Source of the DNA: an uncultured Actinomycetes bacterium
GTDB taxonomy: Bacteria; Actinomycetota; Thermoleophilia; Gaiellales; JAICJC01
NCBI GenBank assembly: GCA_963825325.1
Contig: CAWGSU010000004.1
Span: 1,152,334 to 1,216,333 of the forward strand
Direction of reading: 5' to 3'
Length of the DNA: 64,000 nt
Under the pieces are notes generated by a model that saw only the letters and a list, made by a program, of their open reading frames with translations, had not been told where the DNA came from and did not search any database. A program made the translations under genes and the position numbers. How positions within the stretch are numbered: the stretch's first letter is position 1; each line of letters begins with the position of its first letter. This document shows, piece by piece, positions 1 through 56,125 of this stretch.

Positions 1-796
1 CGCGTTCGTCCGGGCGGTCGGCCAGGGCGGCCAGATGCGCGGCCGGCGTGCCGTGCAGGTGCCACTCGTCGGCGTGCCCGGTGACGAGTCCCGCGGTCGA
101 CAGGCGCGCGAGGGCGTGCGAAACCGACGGCCGCTCGGCGCCGACGAGATGGCCGAGCAGGCGGTGCGTGAGGGGCAGCGGGATGCGGATCCCGCCCGGC
201 TCCACGCGTCCGAAGCGCCCGGCCAGATGCCACAAGAGCAGCGCCAGGCGCACCTCGAGGCGGGGCTGGCTCGTGATCGCGCGCTGCACGCTCAGGTCGC
301 CGGCGCGCCTGCCGGCCCGGCGCATGAGCACGTTCGAGATCTGCGGCCACGGCCGCACGCGCTCGGCGAACGCAGCGTCGAGCAGCGCGAGCCGCGACGG
401 CACCAGCGTGCGCCACTCCCACGTGCGCTCGAGCAGATCGTCGAGGCCCTGCTCCCACGCCTGCAGCAGGTCGCCGGGGCCGACGAGCTCGGTGGCGACG
501 CGATCGCCGACATGGGTGTCGACCGCCACCACTCCGTCGACCACGAGCACGCCGAACCCGCCGCCGGTGGCGGCGAACCAGTCGGCCGCCTGCTGCGCGC
601 CGGCGGGGACGTCCATCACGACGACGGTCGCCACCTGCCGGGCGACCACGCGCATGCGCAGGTCGAACTCCTGCGCCATGTCGTCGTCGAGGTCGAGCAG
701 GTAGCGGTATGACGACGACGCCTGCGGCCGGCGTGGATCCTCGCCGGGCCACTGCGAAGGCAACCGTTGATCGCGCTCGGTCTCGCTGCGGGGCAC
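1..796 (-). CDS. Crp/Fnr-family transcriptional regulator (3' end runs off the left edge, so it is absent from the ORF track)
   Basis: My own minus-strand translation starts at GTG 796, with GGGAGG 5 nt upstream. It reads VPRSETERDQ..YLLDLDDDMAQEFDLRMRVV..DRVATELVGPGDLL (cNMP-binding-like barrel) ..LTHRLLGHLVGAERPSVSHALARLSTAGLV (C-terminal HTH). I saw no stop down to position 1. An alternative ATG start lies at 679. Confidence 0.6.
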   Translation of the reverse strand, partial: MPRSETERDQRLPSQWPGEDPRRPQASSSYRYLLDLDDDMAQEFDLRMRVVARQVATVVVMDVPAGAQQAADWFAATGGGFGVLVVDGVVAVDTHVGDRVATELVGPGDLLQAWEQGLDDLLERTWEWRTLVPSRLALLDAAFAERVRPWPQISNVLMRRAGRRAGDLSVQRAITSQPRLEVRLALLLWHLAGRFGRVEPGGIRIPLPLTHRLLGHLVGAERPSVSHALARLSTAGLVTGHADEWHLHGTPAAHLAALADRPDER

Positions 797-930: not shown

Positions 931-1044
931 CCGGCGGTTTGCCCACTCGGTGAGCCTGGTAGACATCGCGCATCGACCTCTTTGTGGCGCTCGCAACGCG
1001 GCGCCGCGAAGGAGACGTTCAGCACGCCCGAAGGAGATTGGCCC

Positions 1045-1326
1045 ATGTGCCTCGCGATTCCGGGGCAGGTGATCGAGATCGTGGACGACCGCAACCGGCT
1101 GGCGAAGGTCGAGATCGCGGGCGTGCGCCGCAACGTGAACGTGAGCCTGCTCGACGACGACGCCGGCGGCGGCGTCAAGCCGGGCGACTGGGTCCTGATC
1201 CACGTGGGCTTCGCGCTCTCCAAGGTGGATGAGGACGAAGCGCTGGCGACGCTCGCGCTGCTCGAGCAGATGGGCGCCGAGTACGAGCAGGAGCTCGAGG
1301 AGCTGAAGGCGAGCGTGATCGAGTGA
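1045..1326 (+). CDS. hypC: [NiFe]-hydrogenase maturation chaperone HypC
   Basis: The N-terminus is MCLAIPGQVIEIVDD and the protein contains PGDWVLIHVGFAL. ATG 1045 is in frame with ORF 982..1326 and is preceded by GAAGGAGA. Confidence 0.9.
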   Translation: MCLAIPGQVIEIVDDRNRLAKVEIAGVRRNVNVSLLDDDAGGGVKPGDWVLIHVGFALSKVDEDEALATLALLEQMGAEYEQELEELKASVIE

Positions 1327-1619
1327 CCGCAGGCCGGTACGCGGAGATGGCCCCCCCCAGCTCCGCCGCGCCGGCCTGCGGCCCCGACGACCACTGCATC
1401 ACCTGCGGCGATGTCGCGGTCGACCTCGCCGTCGTCCGCATCGATCCCTCCACGCGTCTCGCGTGGTGCTCGGGGGCGTCGCCGGCGGGCAGGCCGGACG
1501 CCGCCGGGGAGTGGGTGGACACCGAGCTCGTCGGCCCGGTGCGACCCGGCGACCGTGTGCTCGTCCACGCGGGCGTCGCCCTGACGCGGCTCGGCTCGCC
1601 CGCCGGCGGTGCCGCGTGA
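1323..1619 (+). CDS. HypC/HybG/HupF-family paralogue with an N-terminal extension (HCITCGD instead of N-terminal MC)
   Basis: GTG 1323 overlaps the hypC stop (GTGA). The core ..HCITCGDVAVDLAVVRID..VRPGDRVLVHAGVAL aligns with HypC (PGDWVLIHVGFAL). Confidence 0.7.
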   Translation: MTAGRYAEMAPPSSAAPACGPDDHCITCGDVAVDLAVVRIDPSTRLAWCSGASPAGRPDAAGEWVDTELVGPVRPGDRVLVHAGVALTRLGSPAGGAA

Positions 1620-2731
1620 AGTTCGTCGACGAGTTCCGCAACCCCGAGCTCGGCCGGGCCGTTGCCGGCGAGATCCTGGCGACGGTCGAGGCGGGGCGCC
1701 ACTACAAGATCATGGAGGTGTGCGGCGGGCACACCCACTCGATCTACAAGTACGGCGTGGACGACCTGCTGCCCGCGAACGTCGAGCTCGTCCACGGGCC
1801 GGGCTGCCCCGTGTGTGTGATCCCGATGGGCCGCGTCGACGACGGCATCGCGCTCGCCCACGAGCCGGACGTGATCTTCACCTGCTTCGGGGACATGCTG
1901 CGTGTGCCCGGTGCGAACGGCACGCTGATGGACGCGAAGGCCGAGGGCGCCGACGTGCGCATGGTGTACTCGCCGCTCGACGCGCTGCGCATCGCCCGCG
2001 AGAACCCCGACCGGCAGGTGGTCTTCTACGCGATCGGCTTCGAGACCACCGCGCCGTCGACCGCGCTCACGCTCAAGCGGGCCAAGGCCGAGGGCGTGAC
2101 CAACTTCTCGTGCATGTGCAACCACGTCACGATCGTGCCGCCGCTGCGGGCGCTGCTCGACTCGCCCGACCTGCGCCTGGACGGCTTCATCGGCCCGGGC
2201 CACGTCGCCACCGTCGTCGGCGGGCGCCCGTTCGAGTTCATCCCCGCCGACTACGGCCGTCCAGTGGTGATCTCCGGGTTCGAGCCGCTCGACCTGCTGC
2301 AGTCGGTGCAGATGATCCTGCGCCAGCTCGCCGACGGCCGCTGCCAGGTTGAGAACCAGTACGCGCGGGTGGTGCCGTACGAGGGCAACATGGCCGCCCT
2401 GAAGGTGATGGCCGAGGTGTTCGCGCTGCGGCCGCACTTCGAGTGGCGCGGCCTGGGCTTCATCTCGCAGAGCGCCCTGCGCCTGTCCGACGCCTACCGC
2501 GACCTCGATGCCGAGGTGCGCTACCAGGTGCCGGGCGTGCGCGTGGCCGACCCCAAGGCGTGCCAGTGCGGCGAGGTGCTGAAGGGCGTGATCAAGCCGT
2601 GGGAGTGCAAGGTGTTCGGCAGCGCCTGCACGCCCGAGCACGCGATCGGCACGTGCATGGTCTCGCCCGAGGGGGCGTGCGCCGCCTACTACAACTACGG
2701 CCGCTTCGCCCGCGACCGCGAGGTGGTGTGA
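1616..2731 (+). CDS. hypD: [NiFe]-hydrogenase maturation protein HypD
   Basis: GTG 1616 overlaps the upstream stop (GTGA). Motifs seen are VKFVDEFRNPEL, MEVCGGHTHSIYKYG, GPGCPVCV, FETTAP and the C-terminal CQCGEVL..GTCMVSPEGACAAYY. Confidence 0.95.
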   Translation: MKFVDEFRNPELGRAVAGEILATVEAGRHYKIMEVCGGHTHSIYKYGVDDLLPANVELVHGPGCPVCVIPMGRVDDGIALAHEPDVIFTCFGDMLRVPGANGTLMDAKAEGADVRMVYSPLDALRIARENPDRQVVFYAIGFETTAPSTALTLKRAKAEGVTNFSCMCNHVTIVPPLRALLDSPDLRLDGFIGPGHVATVVGGRPFEFIPADYGRPVVISGFEPLDLLQSVQMILRQLADGRCQVENQYARVVPYEGNMAALKVMAEVFALRPHFEWRGLGFISQSALRLSDAYRDLDAEVRYQVPGVRVADPKACQCGEVLKGVIKPWECKVFGSACTPEHAIGTCMVSPEGACAAYYNYGRFARDREVV

Positions 2732-2732
2732 G

Positions 2733-3827
2733 GTGCCGCGCGCGGCCGACCCCACCGACCGCGAGCAGCGGGTGCTGGACATCATCGAGACGGTGCGCTC
2801 CAAGCCGCCGAAGTTCCGCGATGCGCGCATCACCATGGCCCACGGCGCGGGCGGCAAGGCGACGCAGACGCTGATCGAGGGCCTGCTCGTGCCCGCCTAT
2901 GGGGCGGCCAGCCTCGCCGCGCTCGCCGACGCAGGCGCCGTGTCGGTCGGGGGCGTCGAGCTCGCGTTCACGACCGACAGCTTCGTCGTCAAGCCGATCC
3001 GCTTCCCCGGCGGCTCGATCGGTGAGCTGGCCGTGAACGGCACCGTGAACGACCTCGCCATGGCGGGCGCGCGGCCGCTCGCGCTGACCCTGTCCATGGT
3101 GCTCGAGGAGGGCCTCTCGGCAGACGACCTGCGCGCCGAGGTCGCGGCGATCGCCGCCGCGGCGGCCGCCGCGGGCGTCGAGATCGTCGCCGGCGACACG
3201 AAGGTCGTCGAGCGCGGGCACGCCGACTCGATGTACCTGTGCACGGCGGGGATCGGCCAGGTCGACCCGCGCGCGGCGCTCTCGCCGGCGGGCCTGCGGC
3301 CCGGCGACCGCATCCTCGTCTCGGGCTCGATCGGCGAGCACGGCACGGCGATCATGCTCGCCCGCGGCGAGTTCGACCTCGACGCCGAGGTCGAGTCCGA
3401 CACGTGCTCGCTCTGGCCGGCGGTCGACGCGCTGCTGGACGCCGCCGGCCACGACCTGCGCTGCCTGCGCGACGCCACCCGCGGCGGCGTCGCCTCGGTG
3501 CTGAACGAGCTCGCGCGCGCCTCGGGGGTGGCCATGGTCGTGCGCGAGGCGGATGTGCCGGTGCTGCCCGCGGTCGCGGGCGCGGCGGAGCTGCTCGGCA
3601 TCGACCCGATGTATGTCGCGAACGAGGGCAAGCTCGTCGCCTTCGTCGCGCCCGAGCGGTGCGAGGCGGCGCTCGCCGCGCTGCGGGCCGTGCCCGGGTG
3701 CGAGCGGGCGGTCGAGATCGGCGAGGTCAAGACCGACCCGCCGGGGATGGTGTTGGTGGAGACGGCGTTCGGCGGCAAGCGGGTCATGGACCAGCTCGTC
3801 GGCGATCCGCTGCCCAGGATCTGTTGA
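2733..3827 (+). CDS. hypE: [NiFe]-hydrogenase maturation protein HypE (carbamoyl dehydratase)
   Basis: The layout is AIR-synthase-like. Motifs seen are MAHGAGGKATQTLIE, AGDTKVVERG and the C-terminal DPLPRIC. Confidence 0.95.
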   Translation: MPRAADPTDREQRVLDIIETVRSKPPKFRDARITMAHGAGGKATQTLIEGLLVPAYGAASLAALADAGAVSVGGVELAFTTDSFVVKPIRFPGGSIGELAVNGTVNDLAMAGARPLALTLSMVLEEGLSADDLRAEVAAIAAAAAAAGVEIVAGDTKVVERGHADSMYLCTAGIGQVDPRAALSPAGLRPGDRILVSGSIGEHGTAIMLARGEFDLDAEVESDTCSLWPAVDALLDAAGHDLRCLRDATRGGVASVLNELARASGVAMVVREADVPVLPAVAGAAELLGIDPMYVANEGKLVAFVAPERCEAALAALRAVPGCERAVEIGEVKTDPPGMVLVETAFGGKRVMDQLVGDPLPRIC

Positions 3828-3855
3828 ACCACGCGGTTCCGAGAGGGAGGGTGAC

Positions 3856-4935
3856 TTGGCCACAGTCGAGTTCGTACCGAACCAGCAGCAGACCGAAGGC
3901 ATCACTGCCCACGTCCTGTGGATGACCACGGGGCTCTCGTGCGAAGGCGACTCGGTCGCGATGACCGCGGCCACGAACCCGAGCCTCGAGGACATCATCA
4001 CCGGCGTCATCCCCGGGATGCCGCGCGTCGTCATCCACAACCAGGTGATCGCCTACGAGGTCGGCCAGGAGTACATCCAGTCCTGGTACGACGCCGAGGC
4101 GGGCAAGCTCGACCCCTTCGTGCTGATCATCGAGGGCTCGATCGGCAACGAGAACATCAACGGCGAGGGCCACTGGTCGGGGTTCGGCGTCCACCCCGAC
4201 ACCGGCCAGCCGATCACCACCAACGACTGGATCGACCGGCTCGCGAACAAGGCGGCGGCGGTCGTCGCCATCGGCACCTGCGCGACCTACGGCGGCATCC
4301 CCGCCATGAAGAACAATCCCACCGGCGCGATGGGCCTGCCCGACTACCTGGGCTGGAACTGGAAGTCGAAGGCCGGCCTGCCCGTCGTGTGTATCCCCGG
4401 CTGCCCGGCGCAGCCCGACAACATGACCGAGACCCTGCTCTACCTCGTCCTGCACCTGGGCGGCCTTGCGCCCGCGCCGGAGCTCGACGACCAGCTGCGG
4501 CCGAAGTGGCTCTTCGACCGCACGACGCACGAGAGCTGCAACCGGGCCGGCTTCTACGAGATGGGCAACTTCGCCACCGAGTACGGCTCCGACCACCGCT
4601 GCCTGGTCAAGCTGGGCTGCGAAGGCCCGATCGTGAAGTGCAACGTGCCGGTGCGCGGCTGGGTCAACGGCATCGGCGGATGTCCCAACGTCGGCGGGAT
4701 CTGCATGGCCTGCACGATGCCCGGCTTCCCCGACAAGTACCTCCCGTTCATGCAGGAGGCGCCGCGATCACGGGTGACGACGATCCCCGCCCGGCTGACC
4801 TACGGCCCGATCTACAAGTTCCTGCGCAGCTGGGAGATCCGCCACAACGGCGACACCGAGCCCACCTGGCGCCACAACCGGAACGAGCTCACGAGCGGGT
4901 ACCAGCCCCGGAACTACGCCCGGAAGGGAGCATGA
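3856..4935 (+). CDS. hhyS: [NiFe]-hydrogenase small subunit, group-1h-like (no Tat signal)
   Basis: TTG 3856 lies 5-6 nt after GAGGGAGG. There is no RRxF twin-arginine motif. The first cluster motif is SCEGD (Asp where canonical enzymes have CxGC). Other motifs are GTCATYGGIPA, IPGCPAQPD and CNVP..GGCPNVGGICMACTMPGFPD. Confidence 0.9.
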   Translation: MATVEFVPNQQQTEGITAHVLWMTTGLSCEGDSVAMTAATNPSLEDIITGVIPGMPRVVIHNQVIAYEVGQEYIQSWYDAEAGKLDPFVLIIEGSIGNENINGEGHWSGFGVHPDTGQPITTNDWIDRLANKAAAVVAIGTCATYGGIPAMKNNPTGAMGLPDYLGWNWKSKAGLPVVCIPGCPAQPDNMTETLLYLVLHLGGLAPAPELDDQLRPKWLFDRTTHESCNRAGFYEMGNFATEYGSDHRCLVKLGCEGPIVKCNVPVRGWVNGIGGCPNVGGICMACTMPGFPDKYLPFMQEAPRSRVTTIPARLTYGPIYKFLRSWEIRHNGDTEPTWRHNRNELTSGYQPRNYARKGA

Positions 4936-4936
4936 C

Positions 4937-6715
4937 GTGACAACGGTCGAGACTCCGCAGGAGCGGAAGGTCATCGTCAAGGAGATGTCGTGGGATCCGA
5001 TCACGCGCATCGTGGGCAGCCTGGGCATCCACACCGAGATCGACTTCACGAACCAGCAGGTGCTCAAGTGCTACTCGACGTCGATGGTGTTCCGCGGGTT
5101 CGACATCTTCATGAAGGGCATCGATCCGCGTGACGCCCACTTCATCACGAGCCGGATCTGCGGCATCTGCGGCGACAACCACTGCACCTGCTCGTGCCTG
5201 AACCAGAACATGGCCTACGGTGTGAAGCCGCCCAAGCTCGGCGACTACGCCTACAACCTGGCCGAGTCGGCCGACTTCATGTTCGACCACGCGATCTTCA
5301 ACGACTGCATGGCCAACGTGGACTTCTGCGAGCAGATGGTCAAGGAGACGAACCCGACCCTGCTGCGCAAGGCCGAGTCGACCCCGTCCCCGCACGGCGA
5401 CATCCACGGCTACAAGACGATCGCCGACATCATGCGGGCGCTCAACCCGTTCACCGGCAGCTTCTATCTCGAGACCCTCCAGGTCGCCCGCTACACGCGC
5501 GAGATGTACTGCCTCTTCGGCGGCCGCCACACGCACCCGTCGACCATCATGCCGGGCGGCGTCTCGGCGGACATCACCCACCAGACGTGCACCGACTACT
5601 ACGTGCGGCTCATGCGCTACATCGAGTACGCCAAGCGCACCGTGCCCATGCACGACGACCTGTACGACTTCTTCCTGCAGGAGCTGCCTGGGTACGACAT
5701 GGTCGGCTACCGCGACACCGACCTGATCTGCTGGGGGTGCTTCGACGATCCCGACTACGTCGACTACAGCTACCGCGGCATGACCGAGTGGGGCCGGCAT
5801 CGCTACATCACGCCCGGCCTGGTCTTCAAGGGCGAGCTGGTGTCGACCGACCTGGTCGAGATCAACCTCGCCATCCGGATCCTGCTCGGGAGCTCCTACT
5901 TCGACGACTGGTCGAGCGAGGAGACGTTCGTGCATACCGATCCGCTCGGGAACCCGGTCGACAAGCGCCACCCGTGGAACAAGGTGACGCTGCCCAAGCC
6001 GCAGAAGCGCGACTGGACGGACAAGTACAGCTGGGTGGTCTCGCCGCGGATGTACGACGCCCGCAACGACACCTACGTCGCCTGCGACACCGGCGGCGGC
6101 CCGTTCGCCCGCCAATGGGTGACGGCGAAGGCCGGCCTGGTCGACATCGGCTACCTGAAGGCCACCGGTCACAGCCTGCAGATGGTGCTCCCGAAGACCG
6201 CCAGCATGCCGGAGATGGAGCTCGAGTGGAAGATCCCGGAGAAGTCGAACGCGATCGAGCGTGACCGGGCCCGCTCCTACCACCAGGCCTACTCGGCCCT
6301 CGTCGGGCTGCACTGCCTCGAGAAGGCCCTGGGCGAGATCCGGGCCGGGCGCACGAAGAGCTGGAACAACTTCAAGGTGCCCCAGGAGGCTGTGAGCGTC
6401 GGCTTCCACGAGGCCGCGCGCGGAGTGCTCTCGCACCACATGGTGATCCGGGGCGGCAAGATCGCGAACTACCAGCCGTACCCGCCGACGCCGTGGAACG
6501 CGAACCCGCGCGACGTCTACGGGACGCCGGGCCCGTACGAGGACGCCGTCCAGAACACCCCCATCTTCGAGGAGAACGGCCCCGAGGACTTCAAGGGAGT
6601 CGACATCATGCGGGCGGTGCGCTCGTTCGACCCGTGCCTGCCGTGTGGCGTGCACATGTACACGGGGGCCGGACGGGTGCGCAAGGTGGAGCATCGCCCG
6701 ACCGGACTCTGCTGA
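4937..6715 (+). CDS. hhyL: [NiFe]-hydrogenase large subunit, group-1h-like
   Basis: The N-terminal Ni-binding motif is SRICGICGDNHCTCS. The C-terminal motif is SFDPCLPCGVHMY, followed by a 17-aa tail that would be removed by the endopeptidase. GTG 4937 lies 1 nt after the small-subunit stop. Confidence 0.95.
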   Translation: MTTVETPQERKVIVKEMSWDPITRIVGSLGIHTEIDFTNQQVLKCYSTSMVFRGFDIFMKGIDPRDAHFITSRICGICGDNHCTCSCLNQNMAYGVKPPKLGDYAYNLAESADFMFDHAIFNDCMANVDFCEQMVKETNPTLLRKAESTPSPHGDIHGYKTIADIMRALNPFTGSFYLETLQVARYTREMYCLFGGRHTHPSTIMPGGVSADITHQTCTDYYVRLMRYIEYAKRTVPMHDDLYDFFLQELPGYDMVGYRDTDLICWGCFDDPDYVDYSYRGMTEWGRHRYITPGLVFKGELVSTDLVEINLAIRILLGSSYFDDWSSEETFVHTDPLGNPVDKRHPWNKVTLPKPQKRDWTDKYSWVVSPRMYDARNDTYVACDTGGGPFARQWVTAKAGLVDIGYLKATGHSLQMVLPKTASMPEMELEWKIPEKSNAIERDRARSYHQAYSALVGLHCLEKALGEIRAGRTKSWNNFKVPQEAVSVGFHEAARGVLSHHMVIRGGKIANYQPYPPTPWNANPRDVYGTPGPYEDAVQNTPIFEENGPEDFKGVDIMRAVRSFDPCLPCGVHMYTGAGRVRKVEHRPTGLC

Positions 6716-6725
6716 GAGGAGCGGC

Positions 6726-7568
6726 ATGAACGACCCGATGGAGCGGGTCTCCGAGCTCACCGCGGCCCTCGAAGCGCTCGAGGACGGGGATGCCCGCAGG
6801 CTGGCCGAGGAGCTCGTCGGGGCGGTGGTCGACCTCTACGGAGAGGGCCTCGCTCGCATCATGGACGTGCTCGCCGACGATTCCCTGGCCGCCGGCGAGC
6901 TGCGGGGACGGTTGGCGGCCGACGGCCTGGTCGCCAGCCTCCTGCTCGTGCACGACCTCTATCCGGTGCCGCTCGAGGAGCGCGTGCTCGCGGCGCTTGC
7001 CTCGGTGCGTCCCTACATGGAGTCGCACGGCGGCGACGTCGAGCTGCTTGGGATCGACGCGGGGGTGGCGCGGCTGCGCCTGGTCGGCCACTGCCATGGC
7101 TGCCCGGCGTCGATGCAGACGCTCGAGCTCGCAATCACCGACGCGCTCGAGGAGCGGGCGCCCGACCTGCTGGGCGTCGAGGTCGAGGGCCTGGCCGAGC
7201 CCGCGCAGCCGGCCGGCGGCGGCATGACCGCGATCCGGGGCCGGCTGGCGGCGCCCACCTGGCTCCCGGTCGAGGCGGCGGGCGACGTCGCCCCCGGCGC
7301 GGTCGCGACGGTGACGCTGCGCGGTGCCGAGATGGTGGTCGCAAACGTCGCGGGCACCCTGCTCGCCTACCGCAGCGAGTGCCCGTGCTGCGGCAGCGGC
7401 CTTGCCGACGCGACCCTCGAGGGCGAGATCCTCGCCTGTGACAAGTGTCACCACGGGTACGTGCTCACCGAGGCCGGCCGGGCCGTCGGCTCCGACGACG
7501 TCCATCTCGATCCGGTGCCGCTGCTTCGGCGTGACGGCGTCGGGGTCGCCGTGGCGGTCGCCACGTGA
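6726..7568 (+). CDS. Hydrogenase-associated NifU-like / Cys-rich Rieske-like two-domain protein (HhyE/HucE-like)
   Basis: The NifU C-terminal-type motif is VRPYMESHGGDVELLGI..RLVGHCHGCPASMQTL. The C-terminal domain carries ECPCCG-x15-CDKCHHGY. ATG 6726 is in frame with ORF 6645..7568. Confidence 0.75.
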   Translation: MNDPMERVSELTAALEALEDGDARRLAEELVGAVVDLYGEGLARIMDVLADDSLAAGELRGRLAADGLVASLLLVHDLYPVPLEERVLAALASVRPYMESHGGDVELLGIDAGVARLRLVGHCHGCPASMQTLELAITDALEERAPDLLGVEVEGLAEPAQPAGGGMTAIRGRLAAPTWLPVEAAGDVAPGAVATVTLRGAEMVVANVAGTLLAYRSECPCCGSGLADATLEGEILACDKCHHGYVLTEAGRAVGSDDVHLDPVPLLRRDGVGVAVAVAT

Positions 7569-8212
7569 GCGCGGGCGTCCCTCCCTCTGCGCCCAACCCC
7601 GAGGTGGTCACGAGCCTGCGCCGGCTGGCGCGGTCGCGTACGGCGGCTGCGCCGCCGGCGGCCGCTCCGGCCGGCGCGCGCTGCGACCTGTGCGGCACGA
7701 CGATCGACGAGGAGCACCGCCACCTGCTCCAGCTCGCCGAGCACCGCATCCTGTGCGCGTGCGAGCCGTGCTTCGCCATGCGGGCGGGCGATCCCGATCT
7801 GCGCCCGACGGGGACGCGGGTGGCGGTGCTGAACGGCTTCGACCTCCCCGACGAGCTCTGGGCCGCGTTCCAGATCCCGATCGGCCTCGCGTTCTTCTTC
7901 CGCACCGCCGACGGCGTCGTGGCGTTCTATCCCAGCCCGGCCGGAGCGACCGAGTCGGAGCTCTACCTCGAGGCGTGGGACGACCTGGTGGCCAGAAACG
8001 CCGCGCTCGCCGGCCTCGAGCAGGAGGTCGAGGCGCTGATCGTCGACCGCTTGAGCGAGCCGCGCAACTACGCGATCGTCCCCATCGACCGCTGCTACGA
8101 GCTCGTCGGCGCGATCAAGGCGAGCTGGCAGGGCATCTCGGGCGGGAGCGCGGTCGAGGATGCGGTGGCCGCGTTCTTCGCCGCGTTGCACGGGCGCCGG
8201 AGCGTCGCGTGA
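7565..8212 (+). CDS. Uncharacterised hydrogenase-cluster protein with CxxC..CxCxxC motif (recalls DUF5947, from memory)
   Basis: The start has a 4-nt overlap (GTGA) with the upstream gene. The Cys motif is ARCDLCGTTIDEEHRHLL..ILCACEPCF. It is on the same strand, and the codon bias matches its neighbours. Confidence 0.7.
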   Translation: MSAGVPPSAPNPEVVTSLRRLARSRTAAAPPAAAPAGARCDLCGTTIDEEHRHLLQLAEHRILCACEPCFAMRAGDPDLRPTGTRVAVLNGFDLPDELWAAFQIPIGLAFFFRTADGVVAFYPSPAGATESELYLEAWDDLVARNAALAGLEQEVEALIVDRLSEPRNYAIVPIDRCYELVGAIKASWQGISGGSAVEDAVAAFFAALHGRRSVA

Positions 8213-8868
8213 GCGCGGTCCCGGCGCTCGAGTTCACGGTGCTCGGGGCGTCGTGCGTCGAGGACGCCGCCGCGCCGACCCTGCGCGTCGACCTCGGCGT
8301 GAGCGAGAGCGCCGGCCTCGAGGTGTTCACGATCGCGCTCACCGCCCAGATCAACATCGACCCGTCGCGGCGCAGCTACGACCCCGAGACGCGCACGCGC
8401 CTGATCGAGCTCTTCGGCGAGCCGGAGCGATGGTCTCAGACGACGCACAGCTTCCTGTGGGCCTACTCGAGCGCGCTCGTGCCGAGCTTCACCGGCACGA
8501 CCACCTTCTCGCTCCCGATCGCGTGCACGTACGACCTCGAGGTGGCGGCGACCAAGTACTTCGCCGGTCTGCCCGGCGGGCACGTCCCGCTCACGTTCCA
8601 CTTCAACGGCTCGATCCTGCACCGGGCTCCGGGCGGCGACATCCAGGTGGTCGCGATCCCGTGGTCGTGCTCCGCCCGCTGGCGGATGCCGGTCGAGACG
8701 TGGCGGGGGATGATGGACCGCCACTACCCGAACTCGAGCTGGGTGCGGCTGCACCCTGACACGACCGACTCGCTGCGCAGGTACACCGCCGAGGCGGGCC
8801 TGTTCTCGATGGATGCCGCGATCGTGCGGCTGCTCGAGTCGGCGACGTCGCCCGAGGCCGGCGCATGA
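8209..8868 (+). CDS. Uncharacterised hydrogenase-cluster protein (recalls DUF6084, from memory)
   Basis: GTG 8209 overlaps the upstream stop (GTGA) and is in frame with ORF 7324..8868. The sequence reads VSAVPALEFTVLGASCVEDAAAPTL..IALTAQINIDPSRRSYD. Confidence 0.7.
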   Translation: MSAVPALEFTVLGASCVEDAAAPTLRVDLGVSESAGLEVFTIALTAQINIDPSRRSYDPETRTRLIELFGEPERWSQTTHSFLWAYSSALVPSFTGTTTFSLPIACTYDLEVAATKYFAGLPGGHVPLTFHFNGSILHRAPGGDIQVVAIPWSCSARWRMPVETWRGMMDRHYPNSSWVRLHPDTTDSLRRYTAEAGLFSMDAAIVRLLESATSPEAGA

Positions 8869-9746
8869 GCGCCGACGCGGCACTCGAGTCGCTGCTCGAC
8901 GCGCTCCTCTACGAGGGCTACGCGCTCTATCCATACACCGGGACAGCGGCCAAGAACGCGACCCCGACGCCCTTCGGGATCGTCTACCCGCCCGCCTATG
9001 CCCACGCCGCCCCGGCCGCGTTCGACATGCTGCGCATGCACGGCGTGGTGCAGGGCAACGGCGACGCCTCGGTGGCGGCCGAGGTGCGGCTGCTGCAGGC
9101 CGCGCCGGAGGGCGGGCACCGGGCGCTCGAGCGGCGGCTGCCCGCGCTTGCGGGGACGCTTGCCGGCCTGGCCGAGAGCTCCCACGTCGAGACGTTCGGC
9201 CTGAACGGCATCTCGGGCCGGGTGCGGCTCTCGGTGCGACCGCTGCATCCCGACGTCTGGCGGATCGCGCTCTGCGTGCACAACACGACGTCGGTGCCGC
9301 CCGGCGTTGATCGCACCACCGCACTGCGCTCGAGCCTGCTCTCGACCCACCCGGTGGTGCGGGTGGGCGGCGCGCGCTTCGCGTCGCCGCTCGAGCGGAC
9401 GGGCGTGCTCGGCCATGCCGTGTCCGGCTGCGGGAGCATCAACACCTATCCCGTGCTCGCGGGGGAGGCCGACGACGTGCTCGTCGGGGCGACGATCATG
9501 CTCCCCGACCACCCGCAGCTCGCGCCCGAGAGCCGTGGCAACCTGTTCGACGGCACCGAGATCGAGGAGGCGCTGCTCCTGCATGTGATGGCGCTCTCCG
9601 ACGACGAGCGCGATCAGGTGACGGGCGGCGACCCGGCGCTGCGCGAGATGGTCGAGCGGGCGGCGGCGGCGACGCCGGAGGACCTGCTGCGGCTGCACGG
9701 CCGCACCGTGCTGTCCGACCCCGCGCCGGAGGGGGGACGGTCATGA
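8865..9746 (+). CDS. Uncharacterised hydrogenase-cluster protein (293 aa)
   Basis: It overlaps both neighbours by ATGA. It begins MSADAALESLLDALLYEGYALYPYT. I recognise no motif. Confidence 0.7.
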   Translation: MSADAALESLLDALLYEGYALYPYTGTAAKNATPTPFGIVYPPAYAHAAPAAFDMLRMHGVVQGNGDASVAAEVRLLQAAPEGGHRALERRLPALAGTLAGLAESSHVETFGLNGISGRVRLSVRPLHPDVWRIALCVHNTTSVPPGVDRTTALRSSLLSTHPVVRVGGARFASPLERTGVLGHAVSGCGSINTYPVLAGEADDVLVGATIMLPDHPQLAPESRGNLFDGTEIEEALLLHVMALSDDERDQVTGGDPALREMVERAAAATPEDLLRLHGRTVLSDPAPEGGRS

Positions 9747-10039
9747 TGGAGGGGTTCGGCGCGCGCGGCGAGCCGCCGGTCGGCGAGGAGCAGGCCGTGG
9801 TCGACGGCGTCACCTACCGCCGGGGCGACAAGGTGCGCCTGCGGCTGACCGAGCGCACCGACCCGTACGACCGCATCCTCGACGGCAGGGTGGCGACGCT
9901 CGAGCGGATCTACTACGACTACGAGGACAAGCTCTACTTCGGTGCGACGATCGACGACGACCCGGGGCAGGACCTGATGCGCGAGACCGGCCGGTTCCTG
10001 TTCTTCTTCGCAGGCGAACTGGAGGCATACCCGACGTGA
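9743..10039 (+). CDS. Uncharacterised small hydrogenase-cluster protein (98 aa)
   Basis: It has an ATGA overlap upstream and a GTGA overlap downstream. The sequence includes ..DGRVATLERIYYDYEDKLYFGATIDDDPG. Confidence 0.65.
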   Translation: MMEGFGARGEPPVGEEQAVVDGVTYRRGDKVRLRLTERTDPYDRILDGRVATLERIYYDYEDKLYFGATIDDDPGQDLMRETGRFLFFFAGELEAYPT

Positions 10040-10551
10040 CAGACCGTAACGAGAAGCAGATCCTGGTGGCGGGCATCGGCAACTCGTGGCTGCGCGACGA
10101 CGGCTTCGGCGGCGAGGTCGCCCGCCGACTTGCCGGGCGCGAGCTGCCGGCCGGCGTGACGGTCGCCGACTTCGGCACCGGCGGGCTCGACCTGGCCTAC
10201 GAGGTCATGCGCGGCTACGACGCGCTCGTCCTGATCGATGTCAGCCGCCAGGGCGAGCCGCCTGGCACGCTGTACGTGATGGAGGCCGACGAGGCCGACG
10301 TCGCCGCCGGGATCGCCGATGGTGACATGATCGACCCGCATGCGATGGATCCCGAGAGCGTGCTGCGCTTCGTCAAGGCCGTCGGCGGCTGGCCGGGCAA
10401 GGTGATCGTGATCGCCTGTGAGCCGGACGAGGTCGAGGAGGTCGGGATCGGCCTTTCGGGCCCGATCGCGGCGTCGATCGACCGCGCGGTCGAGCTCGTC
10501 CTGGAGACGATCGCGGGTCTGCGCGGCGATGCCCCTCTCGAGGTGGGCTGA
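10036..10551 (+). CDS. Hydrogenase maturation endopeptidase (HyaD/HupD family)
   Basis: Motifs seen are ILVAGIGNSWLRDDGFGGEV, DFGTGGLDLAYEV and ALVLIDV..GEPPGTLY. Confidence 0.9.
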   Translation: MTDRNEKQILVAGIGNSWLRDDGFGGEVARRLAGRELPAGVTVADFGTGGLDLAYEVMRGYDALVLIDVSRQGEPPGTLYVMEADEADVAAGIADGDMIDPHAMDPESVLRFVKAVGGWPGKVIVIACEPDEVEEVGIGLSGPIAASIDRAVELVLETIAGLRGDAPLEVG

Positions 10552-10558
10552 AAGCCCC

Positions 10559-10921
10559 ATGCACGAGCTGTCCGTCGCGAGTGCCGTCGTCGACACCGCC
10601 ACCCGCCACGCCGAGGGCCGCCGCGTGACGGCGGTGCAGCTGCGCGTCGGACACCTGCGCCAGGTCGTGCCCGACTCGCTCGCGTTCTACTTCGACCACG
10701 TCGCCGTCGGCACGCTCTGCGAAGGCGCCCGGCTGGAGCAGCAGATCGTGCCGGCGCGCCTCGTGTGCGAGGCCTGCAAGCACGAGTGGGAGCTCGGCGA
10801 GGCGATGTTCCGCTGCCCCCGCTGCGACGCCACGCGGGTGCAGATCACGGCCGGCAACGAGCTCTGTGTCGAGTCGATCGAAGTCGAGGAGCGGGAGGCC
10901 GCATGCATCGCACCAAGGTGA
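10559..10921 (+). CDS. hypA: Nickel-inserting maturation protein HypA
   Basis: The N-terminus has the MHE motif. The zinc site is CEACKHEW..CPRCD. ATG 10559 is in frame with ORF 10418..10921. Confidence 0.9.
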   Translation: MHELSVASAVVDTATRHAEGRRVTAVQLRVGHLRQVVPDSLAFYFDHVAVGTLCEGARLEQQIVPARLVCEACKHEWELGEAMFRCPRCDATRVQITAGNELCVESIEVEEREAACIAPR

Positions 10922-11580
10922 GGGTGCTCGAGGACGTGCTCGACGCGAACGCGACGATCGCACGCGCGAACAGGGACGACTTCGACCGCGCGGGGGTGCG
11001 CGTCGTCAACATGATGAGCTCGCCCGGCGCCGGCAAGACGACGCTGCTCGAGCGCACGCTGGCCGACCTCGCCGGCGTGCGCGTCGGCGTGCTCGAGGGC
11101 GACGTCGCCGGCACGCTCGACGCCGACCGCATCGCGGGCATCCACGTCCCGGTGACGCAGATCAACACCGAGGCCGGCTTCGGCGGCGAGTGCCATCTCG
11201 ACGCGAACATGGTGCGCTCGGCGATCCCGGCGCTGCCGCTGGGCGAGATCGACCTGCTCGTGATCGAGAACGTCGGCAACCTCGTGTGCCCGGCCGAGTT
11301 CCGGGTCGGCGAGGACGTGCGCGTGATGGTCGCGTCGGTCGCCGAGGGCGAGGACAAGCCGCTCAAGTACCCGCTCATGTTCCGCACGTGCGAGCTCGTG
11401 CTCGTGAACAAGATCGACCTGCTGCCGTACGTCGACTTCGACATGGACCGGTTCAACTACCACCTGGACGCGGTCCACCCAGGCGTGCCGCGCCTGCTGA
11501 TGAGCGCGCGCACCGGCGACGGGGTGGATGCGTGGCGCGAGTGGCTGCGCGAGTTCGCGCTCGAGCGCCAGCCGGCGTGA
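10903..11580 (+). CDS. hypB: Nickel-dependent GTPase HypB
   Basis: The protein reads MHRTKVRVLEDVL.. with the SPGAGKTT P-loop, ENVGNLVCPAEF and NKIDLL. It overlaps hypA by 19 nt. I saw no N-terminal CxxCGC motif or His stretch. Confidence 0.9.
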   Translation: MHRTKVRVLEDVLDANATIARANRDDFDRAGVRVVNMMSSPGAGKTTLLERTLADLAGVRVGVLEGDVAGTLDADRIAGIHVPVTQINTEAGFGGECHLDANMVRSAIPALPLGEIDLLVIENVGNLVCPAEFRVGEDVRVMVASVAEGEDKPLKYPLMFRTCELVLVNKIDLLPYVDFDMDRFNYHLDAVHPGVPRLLMSARTGDGVDAWREWLREFALERQPA

Positions 11581-12779
11581 CCGAGACGCGGGCGGCCGAT
11601 CGCGCCCGGCGGGCGCTCGACGACCTGATCGAGCGCCGCGCGGGCGCCGACGCCGCCTTCTTCGCGCAGCACGCCGCCGCGATCGCGAGCCTGTGCCACG
11701 CCATGGCCGAGCGCTTCGCCCGCGGTGGCCGCCTGATCGCCGTCGGCACCTCGCCGCAGGATCGCAGCGACGTGCGCCACGTCGCGGTCGAGTTCGTCCA
11801 TCCCGTGATCGTCGGCAAGCGCGCGCTCCCGGCCGTCGGCCTCGACCCGGCCGCGGGGTCGCTCGCGGGCCAGGTCGGCCTGCTGGCCGAGGCCGACGAC
11901 ATCGTGATCGGCTTCGGCGCCGACGCGGGCGTGGCGGCGGCGATCGCCGTCGCGCGCACGCGCGGCTGCCTGACGGTCGCGTTCGCCCCCGTCGGTGCCG
12001 AGTGGGAGGCGGTGCCTCCGGGCGCGGACACCGCGGTCGACCAGGAGCTCACAGAGACGCTCTACCACCTGCTGTGGGAGCTCGTGCACGTGTTCTTCGA
12101 GCACCGCGGCCTGCTGGCGGGCAGGAGCGCCGGGCCGGTGCACGACTCGGGCGCCTCGGCGTTCCTGTATCCGTTCCTGTCCGAGGGCGAGCACGACCTG
12201 GACGCGGTGCTCGCAGACGTGCGCCGGTCGGTGCTGATGAAGGCCGACGAGGTCGCCGCCCTGCGCGAGCGCACGCTGCGCGAGGGCGCAGACGCGATCG
12301 TCGCGGCCGCGGCCGCGCTGCGGGCCGTCCTCGACGACGGCGGCACCGTGCTCGCGTTCGGAAACGGCGGCTCGGCCACCGACGCGATGGATCTCGTCGC
12401 CGACCTGCGCGCCGGCCTGCGGCCGCGGCGCGCGCTCGACCTGACCGAGGACTCGGGCATCCTGACCGCGCTTGCGAACGACATCGGCCCCGACGTGCTG
12501 TTCGCCCGCCAGGTGATCGCCTACGGCCGGCCGGGCGACGCCGCGGTGGCACTCTCGACGAGCGGCGGCTCCGAGAACATCATCGCCGGCCTGGCCGAGG
12601 CCCGTCGGCGCGGCCTCGTGACGGTGGCGCTGGTCGGCTACGACGGCGGCCGCATCGCCGCCGAGCGCCTGGCCGACCACGTCGTCGTGACGCCGTCGCA
12701 GCACATCCCCCGCATCCAGGAGGCGCAGGCGAGCGCCTACCACGCGCTGCGCGAGCTGATCGAGCTCGCGGGCGGATAG
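11577..12779 (+). CDS. Tandem SIS-domain protein (GmhA/phosphoheptose-isomerase-like), last gene of the hydrogenase locus
   Basis: GTG 11577 overlaps the hypB stop. The C-terminal half reads GGTVLAFGNGGSATDAMDL..ALSTSGGSENI..VALVGYDGG. The N-terminal half is a degenerate SIS copy (GGRLIAVGTSPQDRSD). Confidence 0.8.
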   Translation: MTETRAADRARRALDDLIERRAGADAAFFAQHAAAIASLCHAMAERFARGGRLIAVGTSPQDRSDVRHVAVEFVHPVIVGKRALPAVGLDPAAGSLAGQVGLLAEADDIVIGFGADAGVAAAIAVARTRGCLTVAFAPVGAEWEAVPPGADTAVDQELTETLYHLLWELVHVFFEHRGLLAGRSAGPVHDSGASAFLYPFLSEGEHDLDAVLADVRRSVLMKADEVAALRERTLREGADAIVAAAAALRAVLDDGGTVLAFGNGGSATDAMDLVADLRAGLRPRRALDLTEDSGILTALANDIGPDVLFARQVIAYGRPGDAAVALSTSGGSENIIAGLAEARRRGLVTVALVGYDGGRIAAERLADHVVVTPSQHIPRIQEAQASAYHALRELIELAGG

Positions 12780-12785
12780 GCGCGC

Positions 12786-14003
12786 TCAGACCTCGGCCGC
12801 CAACGTGTCGGGGTCGGCGGCCACAGCGGCGAGGGGGTCGCCGCGCAGCCGCAGCCCGAGCATCGGGTAGACGAGCGTCGAGAGCACCGCCGCGCCGATG
12901 AGGGCGGCGGCGGTCGACGCCCGCATGTGGCCGGTCCTCGTTGCGAGCGTCGTGATCGCGAGGACGAGCGGCAGCTGCGTCGATGACATCAGCGCCAGTG
13001 CGGCCCGTTCACGGGCATCGAGCACCCCCCGGTAGAGCACGAGCGCCGGCGTCCCGCGCACCACGAGGAACAGGAAGAAGAACACCACCATCTTGACGAT
13101 GCCGGAGGGGCTGGAGACGAGCGCGGGCAGGTCCAGGCTCATCCCGCTCGCCACGAAGAAGAACGGCACGAACACGCCGAACGCCACCGCCGTCAGCTTG
13201 GAGTCGAAGGCGGGCAGCTCGCGCGTCTTCAGCACCTGGCGGGTGATCATGCCGGCCGCGAACCCGCCCAAGAGGAGGTCGAGACCGAGCTTGAACGCCA
13301 GGAAGGCGAGCGCGAACACGAGCGCGACGATCCAGCGCACGGCGAGCTGGGAGCTGCTCTCGAGGGTCCGCTCGAACAGCGGAAACGTGCGTGCCGACGA
13401 CCGCACGGCGAAGACGGCGACGCTCACGGCGAGCGCGACGAACGCGATCAGGATGAGGGCGTTGTGCTCGGTGCCCTGGCTGGACAGGAGCAGTGTGAGC
13501 AGAAGGATCGGCCCGAACTCGCCGACGGCGCCCGCGGCCAGCATGTAGGTACCGAAACGGGTGCGCAGCTCGCCGGCGTCGGAGAGGATCGGGATCAGCA
13601 TCCCGATCGCCGTCGTCGCGAGCGCCGATCCGGTGTAGAGCAGCGAGAGCACGACCCCGAACGCGGCCAGCACGCCCCCGATGGTGTAGGCGAGCGCGAG
13701 CGAGAGCCCCCAGCCGAGCAGGCCGAGCCGAAGCGGCGCGCCCCTGATCCGCTGGATGTCGATCTCGTAGCCCGCGAAGAAGAAGAGCAGGCCGAGGCCG
13801 AGGTCGGCGAAGAACGTGACGAACTGGTCGACCTTCAGGCCGAATCCGTGCGGCCCGATGATCACGCCGATCACGAGCTCGATGACGACCACCGGGATGA
13901 GAACGCCGCGCCCGCCTGCCACCGCCGCCAGGCTGCCGGCCAGCGCCGAGGCGGCGACGATGGCGAGAAACGTCGCCGGGTCGACGTGGATCAGGTAGAG
14001 CAT
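12786..14003 (-). CDS. Cation:proton antiporter (Na+/H+ exchanger family)
   Basis: The protein is polytopic, reading MLYLIHVDPATFLAIVAAS..GVIIGPHGFGL..FFFAGYEID. Its ATG overlaps the Fur-like stop (TGATG). The 49-aa N-terminal extension in the track is Arg-rich shadow. Confidence 0.85.
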   Translation of the reverse strand: MLYLIHVDPATFLAIVAASALAGSLAAVAGGRGVLIPVVVIELVIGVIIGPHGFGLKVDQFVTFFADLGLGLLFFFAGYEIDIQRIRGAPLRLGLLGWGLSLALAYTIGGVLAAFGVVLSLLYTGSALATTAIGMLIPILSDAGELRTRFGTYMLAAGAVGEFGPILLLTLLLSSQGTEHNALILIAFVALAVSVAVFAVRSSARTFPLFERTLESSSQLAVRWIVALVFALAFLAFKLGLDLLLGGFAAGMITRQVLKTRELPAFDSKLTAVAFGVFVPFFFVASGMSLDLPALVSSPSGIVKMVVFFFLFLVVRGTPALVLYRGVLDARERAALALMSSTQLPLVLAITTLATRTGHMRASTAAALIGAAVLSTLVYPMLGLRLRGDPLAAVAADPDTLAAEV

Positions 14004-14458
14004 CACGCGCGGCCTTCGGCGTCCGCGCACGCGGCGCACAGCCCGACGATCGGGAAGTGGGTGAAGCGGGCCTGGACGCCGAACCGCTCGTGGATCAGGT
14101 CGCGCACCGGGTCGAGCTCCTCCGGCGCGATGGCGCGCACGGCGCCGCACCCCTCGCAGTAGACGTACTCGCGCTCGCCGGGCACGACCAGGGCGTGCAG
14201 CCCGGGCCCGTGGCCGAGGTGCACGTGGCGCACGACGCCGTGGGCTTCGAGCGTCTCCAGGTTGCGGTACACCGACGCGGTGTCGAGACCGAGGCCGGTG
14301 GCGAGCTGTTCGGCCGATACCGGCCCATCGGCCGCGAACAGCGCCTCGAGCACGAGCCGCCGCGGCGTGGAGATGCGCAGGCCGCGCTCGCGCAACGCCG
14401 CCAGAGCCTCGTCCAGGCCGGCGAACGCGAGCGTCGGGACGCGCGGAGCCTCGGTCAT
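14003..14458 (-). CDS. Fur-family metalloregulator (possibly nickel-responsive, Nur-like)
   Basis: The winged helix reads PRRLVLEALF..SAEQLA..SVYRNLETLEAHGVV. It also has HVHLGHGPGLHA and the CEGCG..CAAC zinc site. Confidence 0.85.
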   Translation of the reverse strand: MTEAPRVPTLAFAGLDEALAALRERGLRISTPRRLVLEALFAADGPVSAEQLATGLGLDTASVYRNLETLEAHGVVRHVHLGHGPGLHALVVPGEREYVYCEGCGAVRAIAPEELDPVRDLIHERFGVQARFTHFPIVGLCAACADAEGRA

Positions 14459-14471
14459 CTCCGCGGAGAGA

Positions 14472-27481: not shown

Positions 27482-27570
27482 CGGAGGGGGAGGGATTCGA
27501 ACCCTCGGTACGCCTAACGACGCACAACGGTTTTCGAGACCGCCGCATTCAACCACTCTGCCACCCCTCC
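27482..27570 (-). tRNA. tRNA-Ser (anticodon CGA)
   Basis: The reverse complement folds as a class II cloverleaf. The acceptor is GGAGGGG/CCCCTCC, the D arm is GCA..TGC, and the anticodon loop is CTCGAAA. It has a long variable arm and the T arm GAGGGTTCGAATCCCTC. CCA is not encoded. Confidence 0.9.
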
Positions 27571-47105: not shown

Positions 47106-47157
47106 CGGTGTGGTTATCTCCATTGTCTTACATACTGGGCCCGCGTACGCTTGGGCG

Positions 47158-52931: not shown

Positions 52932-53021
52932 CGGAGAGGGAGGGATTCGAACCCTCGCTGGAGGTTTACCCCCCAGACCCACTTAGCAGGCGGGCGCCTT
53001 CAGCCACTCGGCCACCTCTCC
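52932..53021 (-). tRNA. tRNA-Ser (anticodon GCT)
   Basis: The reverse complement has the acceptor GGAGAGG/CCTCTCC and the D arm GCC..GGC. The anticodon loop is CTGCTAA. It has a long variable arm and the T arm GAGGGTTCGAATCCCTC. Confidence 0.9.
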
Positions 53022-56109: not shown

Positions 56110-56125
56110 GGGTGGGCCCTTCGGA

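Follow-up and report, generated by a model that had tools for sequence, protein, structure and literature searches.

The 64,000-nucleotide stretch of DNA analyzed here (hereafter, the window), from a contig of an uncultured actinobacterium of the class Thermoleophilia, very probably carries, at positions 1045-12779 of its plus strand, a complete gene cluster for a [NiFe] uptake hydrogenase of group 1h (Hhy; the "actinobacterial-type," formerly group 5) and for its maturation, as judged from the encoded proteins. Enzymes of this group are defined by H2 oxidation that is insensitive to O2, in many members with high affinity; they are considered an important biological sink for atmospheric H2 and a means by which soil bacteria survive. 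The locus is one more well-preserved example from Thermoleophilia, an abundant class dominated by uncultured members, and brings no conceptual change; group 1h enzymes have already been reported in metagenome-assembled genomes (MAGs) of this class (PMC8528921). Its by-products are a clean gene model of the Thermoleophilia-type cluster, the conservation of its gene order in about 45 species, and a candidate regulator-operator pair. Only the conserved operator and regulator, together with an orphan small subunit, go slightly beyond documented knowledge.

The window was compared with a near-identical 2.6-Mb metagenome contig from ENA (L001; 99.86% identity, with 23 substitutions and 1 indel over 16.7 kb) and with 80 related loci, which were found in a scan of species-representative genomes and mapped by tblastn. 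The closest named proteins and genomes are those of Thermoleophilaceae, Baekduia, and Solirubrobacterales MAGs. An earlier first-pass annotation, made from the letters of the window without database searches, had proposed a group 1h-like hydrogenase locus, and its claims are taken up below where the results bear on them.

Hydrogenase subunits and group assignment

In a search of all PDB sequences, the large subunit, HhyL, matched that of the group 1h enzyme of Cupriavidus necator (Ralstonia eutropha) H16 (5AA5_C) with 925 bits (E = 1e-277). The next matches scored 155 bits (NiFeSe hydrogenase, group 1a), 133 bits (the group 1d membrane-bound hydrogenase [MBH], 3RGW), 110 bits (the group 2a enzyme Huc, 7UTD), and at most 67 bits (group 3). 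The small subunit, HhyS, behaved likewise, matching 5AA5_A with 476 bits (E = 5e-142) and its next PDB sequence with 130 bits, and E values of this size for both subunits rule out chance similarity to 5AA5. Identity to this solved structure also settles the fold. Huc, whose chains gave 110 bits with HhyL (7UTD_A) and 122 bits with HhyS (7UTD_B), falls far below 5AA5 on both counts; it was also the subject of the only papers found in a literature search for a cryo-electron microscopy structure of Hhy. When plasmid records were searched with HhyL by tblastn, 13 group 1h records were recovered at 62-68% identity, including C. necator pHG1 and records from Streptomyces, Kitasatospora, Embleya, Mycobacterium, and Methylocystis, and all others had 27% identity or less. 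In a neighbor-joining (NJ) tree of 1h sequences from eight phyla or classes together with C. necator HoxG (1d), HoxC (2b), and HoxH (3d), HhyL was placed inside the 1h clade, beside Solirubrobacterales and Thermoleophilaceae sequences with which it shares 83-87% identity; its identity to HoxG, HoxC, and HoxH is 24-30%. PDB scores, plasmid identities, and the tree agree in grouping the large subunit with 1h rather than with 1d, 2a, or 3, as the first-pass annotation had supposed.

The motifs on which that annotation had relied, together with a cleavable tail, were found in HhyL: RICGIC(GDNH) at residues 73-78 (nucleotides 5153-5170) and DPCLPCGVH at residues 565-573 (nucleotides 6629-6655), with a C-terminal tail of 19 residues after His573. 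The L1 and L2 motifs (TSRICGICGDNH and SFDPCLPCGVH) align with their counterparts in the 5AA5 large subunit without a single difference, and xRICGICGDNH and xDPCLPCGVH are reportedly the published signatures of group 1h (Constant et al. 2011, as mentioned in PMC5900883). Of the 603 aa encoded by the C. necator gene, the crystallized 5AA5_C chain has 579, its last residue being the aligned His; proteolytic removal of the HhyL tail by the endopeptidase encoded at 10036-10551 is thereby supported.

In the small subunit, the sequence GLS-C29-E-G-D32-S (nucleotides 3940-3951) aligns with C-D-G-D of 5AA5_A and with C-T-G-C of the NiFeSe enzyme (4KL8_S), so that S-C-E-G-D does stand in place of C-x-G-C, as first noted from the sequence. 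A proximal cluster held by three Cys and one Asp, which the first-pass annotation had attributed to the R. eutropha enzyme, is described for that enzyme in a 2024 review, where replacement of the Asp abolishes O2 insensitivity (PMC11023054); Asp32 of the window protein aligns with that residue. The predicted proximal-cluster ligands of HhyS are C29, D32, C142, and C183, and those of the distal and medial clusters are H225/C228/C249/C255 and C262/C276/C283/C286, respectively. Which His/Cys set belongs to the distal and which to the medial cluster is our inference by analogy with other small subunits; the residues of both sets are invariant between HhyS and its paralogue HhyS2 (see below). In all, HhyS has the predicted ligands of three [4Fe-4S]-type clusters, among them the Cys3Asp proximal site specific to 1h.

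The start of HhyS was examined closely, as the first-pass annotation had placed it at TTG 3856, without a twin-arginine (Tat) signal, and had named a translated in-frame Tat signal upstream as grounds for rejecting its reading. A GGGAGG Shine-Dalgarno sequence lies 6 nt 5' of this TTG, an independent call on L001 picks the same start, and the orthologues (about 70 loci) begin with ATG at the aligned position (e.g., MATVEFVPNQ), the conserved core following 22 residues after the start. Many orthologous loci carry an in-frame stop 25-28 codons upstream of a conserved Trp, and no signal peptide is therefore possible. The in-frame stretch upstream of hhyS (3505-3855) is noncoding: GC by codon position is 0.46/0.96/0.77, the profile of a frame not in register with hypE, whose own frame there gives 0.77/0.47/0.95. 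It contains no RRxF motif, and no hydrophobic run in it exceeds 2 residues. A Tat signal translated from an upstream start (ATG 3553 or 3613) was ruled out, since the reading frame concerned overlaps hypE out of frame and is interrupted by stops in the orthologues. Hydrogenases of groups 1a-1f carry an RRxFxK signal on the small subunit, with cytochrome b or an equivalent membrane anchor encoded in the operon. No cytochrome b-type gene was detected with Pfam among the 15 genes of the cluster, and the structures of groups 1a-1e score at most 155 bits; the locus lacks the features that define the Tat-exported respiratory uptake hydrogenases.

Gene layout, transcription, and a candidate regulator

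Because the window has a G+C content of 72%, genes were called from codon-position GC with inspection of start codons and ribosome-binding sites (RBS) and were then checked against Pfam and NCBIfam (Table 1). The cluster comprises 15 genes (14 if a split gene is counted once), one fewer than the 16 counted in the first-pass annotation, in the order hypC, hypC-like, hypD, hypE, hhyS, hhyL, hhyE-type, DUF5947, DUF6084, the split gene, protease, hypA, hypB, and tandem-SIS. The identities and order given there are borne out by Pfam, NCBIfam, and reference alignments. Its proposed cluster start at TTG 982, the earliest TTG available, gives way to ATG 1045 for hypC, which opens with MCLAIPG behind an RBS (GAAGGAG) and was called identically on L001. 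Of the 14 junctions, exactly 9 are overlaps, of 4 nt in eight cases and 19 nt in the ninth, in keeping with the nine or more first claimed, and the remaining five are gaps of 1, 28, 1, 10, and 7 nt, the largest (28 nt) just before hhyS.

Table 1. Features of the hydrogenase locus and its flanks (window coordinates unless L001 is named; aa, amino acids)
Feature	Position	Strand	Description
Crp/Fnr-family regulator gene	1-796	-	N-terminal 265 of 278 codons in window, runs off left edge; divergent from cluster; Pfam HTH_Crp_2 9e-11
Candidate operator site 1	891-904	unstranded	Palindrome GTAATCCGGGTTAC; consensus GTAAY-N4-RTTAC
Candidate operator site 2	916-929	unstranded	Palindrome GTAACCCTGATTAC; 25 nt centre-to-centre from site 1
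hypC	1045-1326	+	93 aa, MCLAIPG start; Fe(CN)2CO-transfer chaperone; Pfam HupF_HypC 4.9e-26; TIGR00074 87 bits (cutoff 48)
hypC-like gene	1323-1619	+	98 aa; partial HupF_HypC match, 28.2 bits, just under cutoff of 28.5
hypD	1616-2731	+	371 aa; Pfam HypD 4e-153
hypE	2733-3827	+	364 aa, C-terminal ...LPRIC; Pfam AIRS, AIRS_C; 52-54% identical to reference HypE
hhyS	3856-4935	+	359 aa, TTG start; matches 5AA5_A; Pfam Oxidored_q6, NiFe_hyd_SSU_C
hhyL	4937-6715	+	592 aa; predicted Ni-Fe ligands C75, C78, C567, C570; 5AA5_C match, identity bands, tree
hhyE-type, putative Fe-S (iron-sulfur) protein	6726-7568	+	280 aa; Pfam NifU 1e-17, Rieske 6e-5
DUF5947 protein, 1h-specific accessory	7565-8212	+	215 aa; Pfam 1.9e-58; same position in C. 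necator and Streptomyces loci
DUF6084 protein, 1h-specific accessory	8209-8868	+	219 aa; Pfam 1.5e-73; synteny with C. necator and Streptomyces
N-terminal part of ~470-aa accessory protein	8865-9746	+	293 aa; aligns to residues 4-343 of WP_011153991 (C. necator) and of a Streptomyces 469-aa protein
C-terminal part of ~470-aa accessory protein	9743-10039	+	98 aa; aligns to residues 391-467 of the reference proteins
Hydrogenase maturation endopeptidase	10036-10551	+	171 aa; Pfam HycI 4e-20; TIGR00072 124 bits (cutoff 47)
hypA	10559-10921	+	120 aa; Pfam HypA 2e-31, whole model covered
hypB (GTPase)	10903-11580	+	225 aa; Pfam cobW/HypB/UreG 1e-17; 45% identical to Streptomyces HypB from residue 1
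Tandem-SIS (GmhA-like) protein	11577-12779	+	400 aa; Pfam SIS_2; gmhA-type models match residues 225-396 below cutoffs
Fur-family metalloregulator beside nickel transporter	14003-14458	-	Pfam FUR 8e-9
NicO/HoxN-type high-affinity nickel transporter	14472-15476	-	Pfam NicO 1.4e-89
hhyS2, orphan small-subunit paralogue	L001 3975-5015, ~50-1090 nt left of window base 1	-	346 aa, full length

The G+C content falls to 65.5% at 4001-6000, across hhyS and hhyL, against 72% overall. Recent horizontal transfer as the cause was ruled out by the third-position GC of the two genes (GC3, 0.96); G+C is low at the first and second codon positions only (GC1, 0.57-0.59; GC2, 0.43-0.47), so the dip is a compositional, amino acid-driven constraint and not foreign DNA. 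The single indel, an extra G in L001 at the position matching window 10601, shifts the frame of its hypA, whereas the window hypA is intact with a full-length Pfam match, suggesting indel errors in at least one of the two assemblies.

The interleaving of structural and maturation genes that the first-pass annotation had singled out is present, but it is no peculiarity of this locus. The same gene order recurs in about 45 Thermoleophilia species, usually with hypF after the SIS gene, so the layout of the window is not unusual, and in Acidobacteria structural genes flanked by maturation genes, as well as an association with gmhA/SIS genes, have been described (PMC5900883).

A single long operon is a reasonable inference from the spacing of these genes. 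Transcription of all 15 genes would then probably start within the 248 bp ahead of hypC, as the spacing and the conserved operator described below suggest. An alternative hypothesis, which we consider somewhat unlikely, is that the cluster is divided into two or more transcription units (e.g., hypC-hypE, hhyS-protease, and hypA-SIS), each with an internal promoter. Breaks could be sought at the gaps of 28 nt before hhyS, 10 nt after hhyL, and 7 nt before hypA, and there are precedents: Mycobacterium smegmatis has its structural genes in one operon and its maturation genes in another (PMC6883350), and in an acidobacterium hhyS and hhyL appeared to be differentially expressed, with internal promoters proposed in Acidobacteriaceae KBS 83 (PMC8027828). 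A promoter consensus scan returned 0 sites against 0.4 expected, and actinobacterial promoter types lie outside its consensus. Against such a division stand the nine translationally coupled overlaps with no gap above 28 nt, the conservation of block order in about 45 species, and the finding that the sole conserved noncoding motif detected lies upstream of hypC. In a consensus scan for terminator-like hairpins, 4 sites turned up where 2.4 were expected, and no plus-strand site was intergenic.

That motif lies in the 248-bp divergent region between hypC and a Crp/Fnr-family regulator gene on the minus strand, which contains two 14-bp palindromes (Table 1). The consensus GTAAY-N4-RTTAC matches twice in the 64-kb window, against 0.01 matches expected from shuffles, and its 34 exact matches in 1.57 Mb (the window plus related loci) all lie 49-164 nt upstream of hypC. 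A Crp-like homologue adjoins the cluster in 31 related loci, and every exact match falls in a locus with such a gene (25 of the 31 loci have an exact site, 30 if one mismatch is allowed). Loci without a detected Crp-like gene had no exact match; one of six such loci checked (L004) has a one-mismatch site upstream of hypC. The regulator is a distant member of the Crp/Fnr family whose best PDB matches are Crp-family regulators of M. tuberculosis (E = 1.5e-7), and its lack of cysteine residues excludes an Fe-S sensor of the FNR type. From this co-occurrence, we regard pairing of the Crp-like protein with the GTAAY-N4-RTTAC sites as moderately probable. The hypC promoter would then probably be controlled by the divergent, cysteine-free regulator at the two palindromes. 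To our knowledge, no regulator of 1h hydrogenase expression has been defined, and the regulator-operator pair, if confirmed, would be the first handle on its control.

The regulator gene has a second neighbor of interest. To the left of the window, L001 continues on the minus strand with the rest of the Crp-like gene, then hhyS2, and then hypF, with the Crp-like gene directly preceding hhyS2 on the same strand at a gap of 8 nt. HhyS2 is 63% identical to HhyS and keeps all of its Cys/His ligands, with C-D-G-E in place of C-E-G-D (Glu for the proximal Asp). About 25 Thermoleophilia loci carry a homologous copy in divergent orientation, and no orthologue of more than 70% identity was found among species-representative genomes (best, 69%). 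Extra copies are also known from Acidobacteriota: full-length hhyS genes without a large subunit of their own have been reported in Pyrinomonas methylaliphatogenes, Acidobacteriaceae KBS 83, and Edaphobacter aggregans (PMC8027828), and among the 1h loci compared here, many Terriglobia MAGs show a tandem hhyS'-hhyS-hhyL arrangement. The Thermoleophilia copies differ in being divergently oriented, paired with a Crp/Fnr-like gene, and placed in a clade of their own. A single ancient clade of paralogues spanning both lineages was considered but found no support, as the two sets formed separate groups in a rough NJ tree (distance-based, midpoint-rooted, and without bootstrap). HhyS2 could conceivably join the one HhyL of the locus in a second isoenzyme whose redox tuning or response to O2 and H2 differs, or it could instead pass redox information to the Crp-like regulator; a distinct functional role of either kind, in tuning or in sensing, is in our judgment unlikely. 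Thermoleophilia 1h loci with a Crp-like regulator, operators, and HhyS2 might constitute a regulated module of a kind not described for this enzyme class.

Accessory genes, proposed mechanism, and affinity for H2

Downstream of hhyL, the accessory block typical of group 1h is complete, with an HhyE/NifU-type protein, three conserved hypothetical proteins, and the endopeptidase. The hhyE-type gene begins 10 nt after hhyL. Its product has a NifU domain at residues 89-152 that contains CHGC and a C-terminal Rieske-fold-like domain with two CxxC motifs (CPCC and CDKC). This pattern fits the published description of HhyE, which is encoded directly after hhyL, combines a NifU-like domain bearing a CxxC with a C-terminal domain bearing two, and is genetically required for Hhy activity in M. 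smegmatis (PMC6883350).

By analogy with [NiFe] hydrogenase biology in general, HypCDEF would build the Fe(CN)2CO moiety, with HypE ending in the PRIC motif, HypAB would insert Ni supplied by the nearby NicO transporter, and the endopeptidase would cleave the HhyL tail after His573. The mature HhySL is predicted to be a cytoplasm-facing heterodimer with a Ni-Fe site formed by C75/C78/C567/C570 and a three-cluster wire starting at the Cys3Asp proximal cluster. Like the enzymes of C. necator and M. smegmatis, it could oxidize H2 in air, with electrons passing from the proximal through the medial to the distal cluster and on to HhyE and the respiratory chain.

How tightly such an enzyme would bind H2 cannot be read from its sequence, since the group 1h prototype, the actinobacterial-type hydrogenase (AH) of C. 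necator, has a KM of about 4 μM and low activity (PMC11023054); "atmospheric-H2-type," the label used in the first-pass annotation, is a kinetic term that goes beyond what sequence can establish. It is conceivable, if unlikely, that the enzyme belongs to group 1h but is of micromolar or mid-range affinity and supports growth or persistence on locally elevated H2, as do C. necator AH and the enzymes of Methylacidiphilum and Thermomicrobium. The prototype itself sets this precedent, further mid-affinity 1h enzymes are mentioned elsewhere (PMC6883350), and affinity has no known predictor in the sequence. The presence of a phosphoribulokinase gene (47110-48093) also hints at possible CO2 fixation driven by H2 rather than pure persistence. 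Nevertheless, most 1h enzymes of soil Actinomycetota, Acidobacteriota, and Chloroflexota tested in whole cells oxidize atmospheric H2. The window, moreover, encodes a full-length HhyE (280 aa), which is reported to be absent from the mid-affinity Methylacidiphilum and Thermomicrobium species (PMC6883350) and of which the low-affinity C. necator AH has only a truncated, NifU-only version (192 aa).

A literature search on DUF5947 and DUF6084, the next two accessory proteins, found nothing relevant. The accessory protein of about 470 aa is encoded in two open reading frames that overlap by ATGA, with the frame switch at a G6 run (9731-9736); the 293-aa N-terminal part matches no Pfam or NCBIfam family. 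Among the related loci, 37 scored as having a fused gene and 29 a split one (a few of the latter being artifacts of the test), the fused form prevailing in most close relatives and the split form being the norm in Acidobacteriota loci. The split may be genuine, or it may be a homopolymer (long-read) error, and it is identical in the window and L001.

Several points weigh against the account given so far. NCBIfam has no 1h-specific model and every hydrogenase subunit match to it is below its cutoff, so the classification rests on comparison with reference sequences and not on a curated family threshold. The G6 split could be a frameshift mutation or an assembly error. Binding of the Crp-like protein to the palindrome is deduced purely from their co-occurrence. 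Finally, the separate operons of M. smegmatis and the differentially expressed acidobacterial hhyS and hhyL mean that tight spacing is no proof of a single transcript.

The split raises the further question of whether the locus is decaying or nonfunctional, with the accessory gene, divided here but a single frame in most close relatives, marking the onset of pseudogenization. We judge this very improbable: none of the other genes is truncated or has lost catalytic or ligand residues, the ATGA overlap of the two parts is of the kind seen in coupled genes, GC3 is at least 0.9 in both, split versions are usual in Acidobacteriota loci, and the arrangement is repeated in a second, independent assembly. 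That the enzyme belongs instead to another [NiFe] group (1d, 1l, 2a, or 3) and shares mere motif resemblance with 1h has next to no chance of being right, as no support for it was found with the references compared (1a, 1d, 2a, 2b, and 3), the bit scores and the identities to 1d, 2b, and 3d sequences given above run against it, only 1 nt separates hhyS from hhyL, accessory genes specific to 1h accompany them, and nothing in the evidence gathered contradicts assignment to the group 1h family.

Maturation genes, related loci, and the surroundings of the cluster

The maturation genes of the window comprise hypA-hypE, and hypF lies on the minus strand just left of the window, as seen on L001. The hyp set is thus complete; hypF is not missing and escaped the earlier reader because it lies outside the window. 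HypC is 50% identical to C. necator HypC. The hypC-like gene that follows it encodes a protein with an internal H-C-I-T-C-G-D motif, preceded by a variable N-terminal extension and followed by a HypC-type C-terminal barrel. Canonical HypC requires an N-terminal Cys. In 42 related loci a hypC-like gene sits at the same place, after hypC and before hypD, and the motif H/x-C-I/V-T-C-G/A/S-D is invariant among them. The C. necator, Streptomyces, and Acidobacteriota loci that were inspected have no such gene, whose product is probably a HypC/HupF-type chaperone specific to the Thermoleophilia lineage. At the other end of the cluster, each half of the 400-aa SIS protein matches the single-SIS protein of the C. 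necator hyp cluster, of which it is a tandem duplication.

Among the closest known counterparts of the locus is that of C. necator H16 AH (HofK/HofG, PDB 5AA5; PHG064-PHG071 on pHG1 plus the adjacent hyp genes), with identities of 65% for the large subunit, over the full length, and 58% for the small subunit. The two loci share the RICGICGDNH/DPCLPCGVH motifs, the C-x-G-D proximal motif, and the absence of a Tat signal; the downstream NifU-type gene, DUF5947, DUF6084, the ~470-aa protein, and the protease; and an SIS gene among the hyp genes with an adjacent HoxN/NicO nickel transporter. They differ in the placement of the maturation genes, which in C. necator all follow the structural block (hypF-C-SIS-D-E-A-B), whereas here that block stands after hypC-E and before hypA-B, with hypF divergent. 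The SIS protein of C. necator is single-domain and its ~470-aa gene is fused, in contrast to the tandem SIS and split gene here. C. necator also lacks the second hypC-like gene, the Crp-like regulator, and the orphan small subunit, all three of which occur at the window locus or on its left flank.

Hhy of M. smegmatis (Hyd2; MSMEG_2722-2718, with HhyE being MSMEG_2718) belongs to the same group and, by its published description, has the same HhyE architecture (PMC6883350); it has been studied physiologically. HhySL of Streptomyces (S. avermitilis type), compared here through S. fungicidicus plasmid p1, is 66% (HhyL) and 60% (HhyS) identical to the window proteins and is encoded in the same structural and accessory block, followed by hypA-B. 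Its order is hhyS-hhyL-...-protease-hypA-B-F-C-D-E, its NifU-type gene is short (193 aa), and in the region compared it lacks the SIS gene, the hypC-like gene, and the Crp-like/hhyS2 pair.

Convergent with the end of the cluster, a Na+/H+ exchanger gene, the Fur-family regulator gene, and the NicO/HoxN gene occupy 12786-15476 on the minus strand. NicO is 44% identical to the HoxN adjoining the C. necator AH locus, and NicO homologues lie near the cluster in 17 related loci. The adjacent Fur-family gene could possibly encode a nickel-responsive regulator, a role suggested by its position; the NCBIfam Fur, Zur, and PerR models all scored below their cutoffs for its protein. An Rfam scan of the window found no riboswitch near nicO or the hydrogenase cluster, its only matches being two tRNA genes (27482-27570 and 52932-53021, both on the minus strand).

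Farther away, the phosphoribulokinase encoded at 47110-48093 scored 344 bits against NCBIfam NF005655 (cutoff, 236), and a divergent LysR regulator gene (46207-47085) had CbbR as its best match, below cutoff. Together they hint that the organism might run a Calvin cycle powered by H2 oxidation; no RuBisCO gene was found in the 64-kb window. At 54163-57241, on the minus strand, a gene for a 648-aa protein with repeated ASH/HYDIN-type Ig-like domains, probably a cell-surface protein unrelated to the hydrogenase, is followed by a 371-aa open reading frame without a family match.

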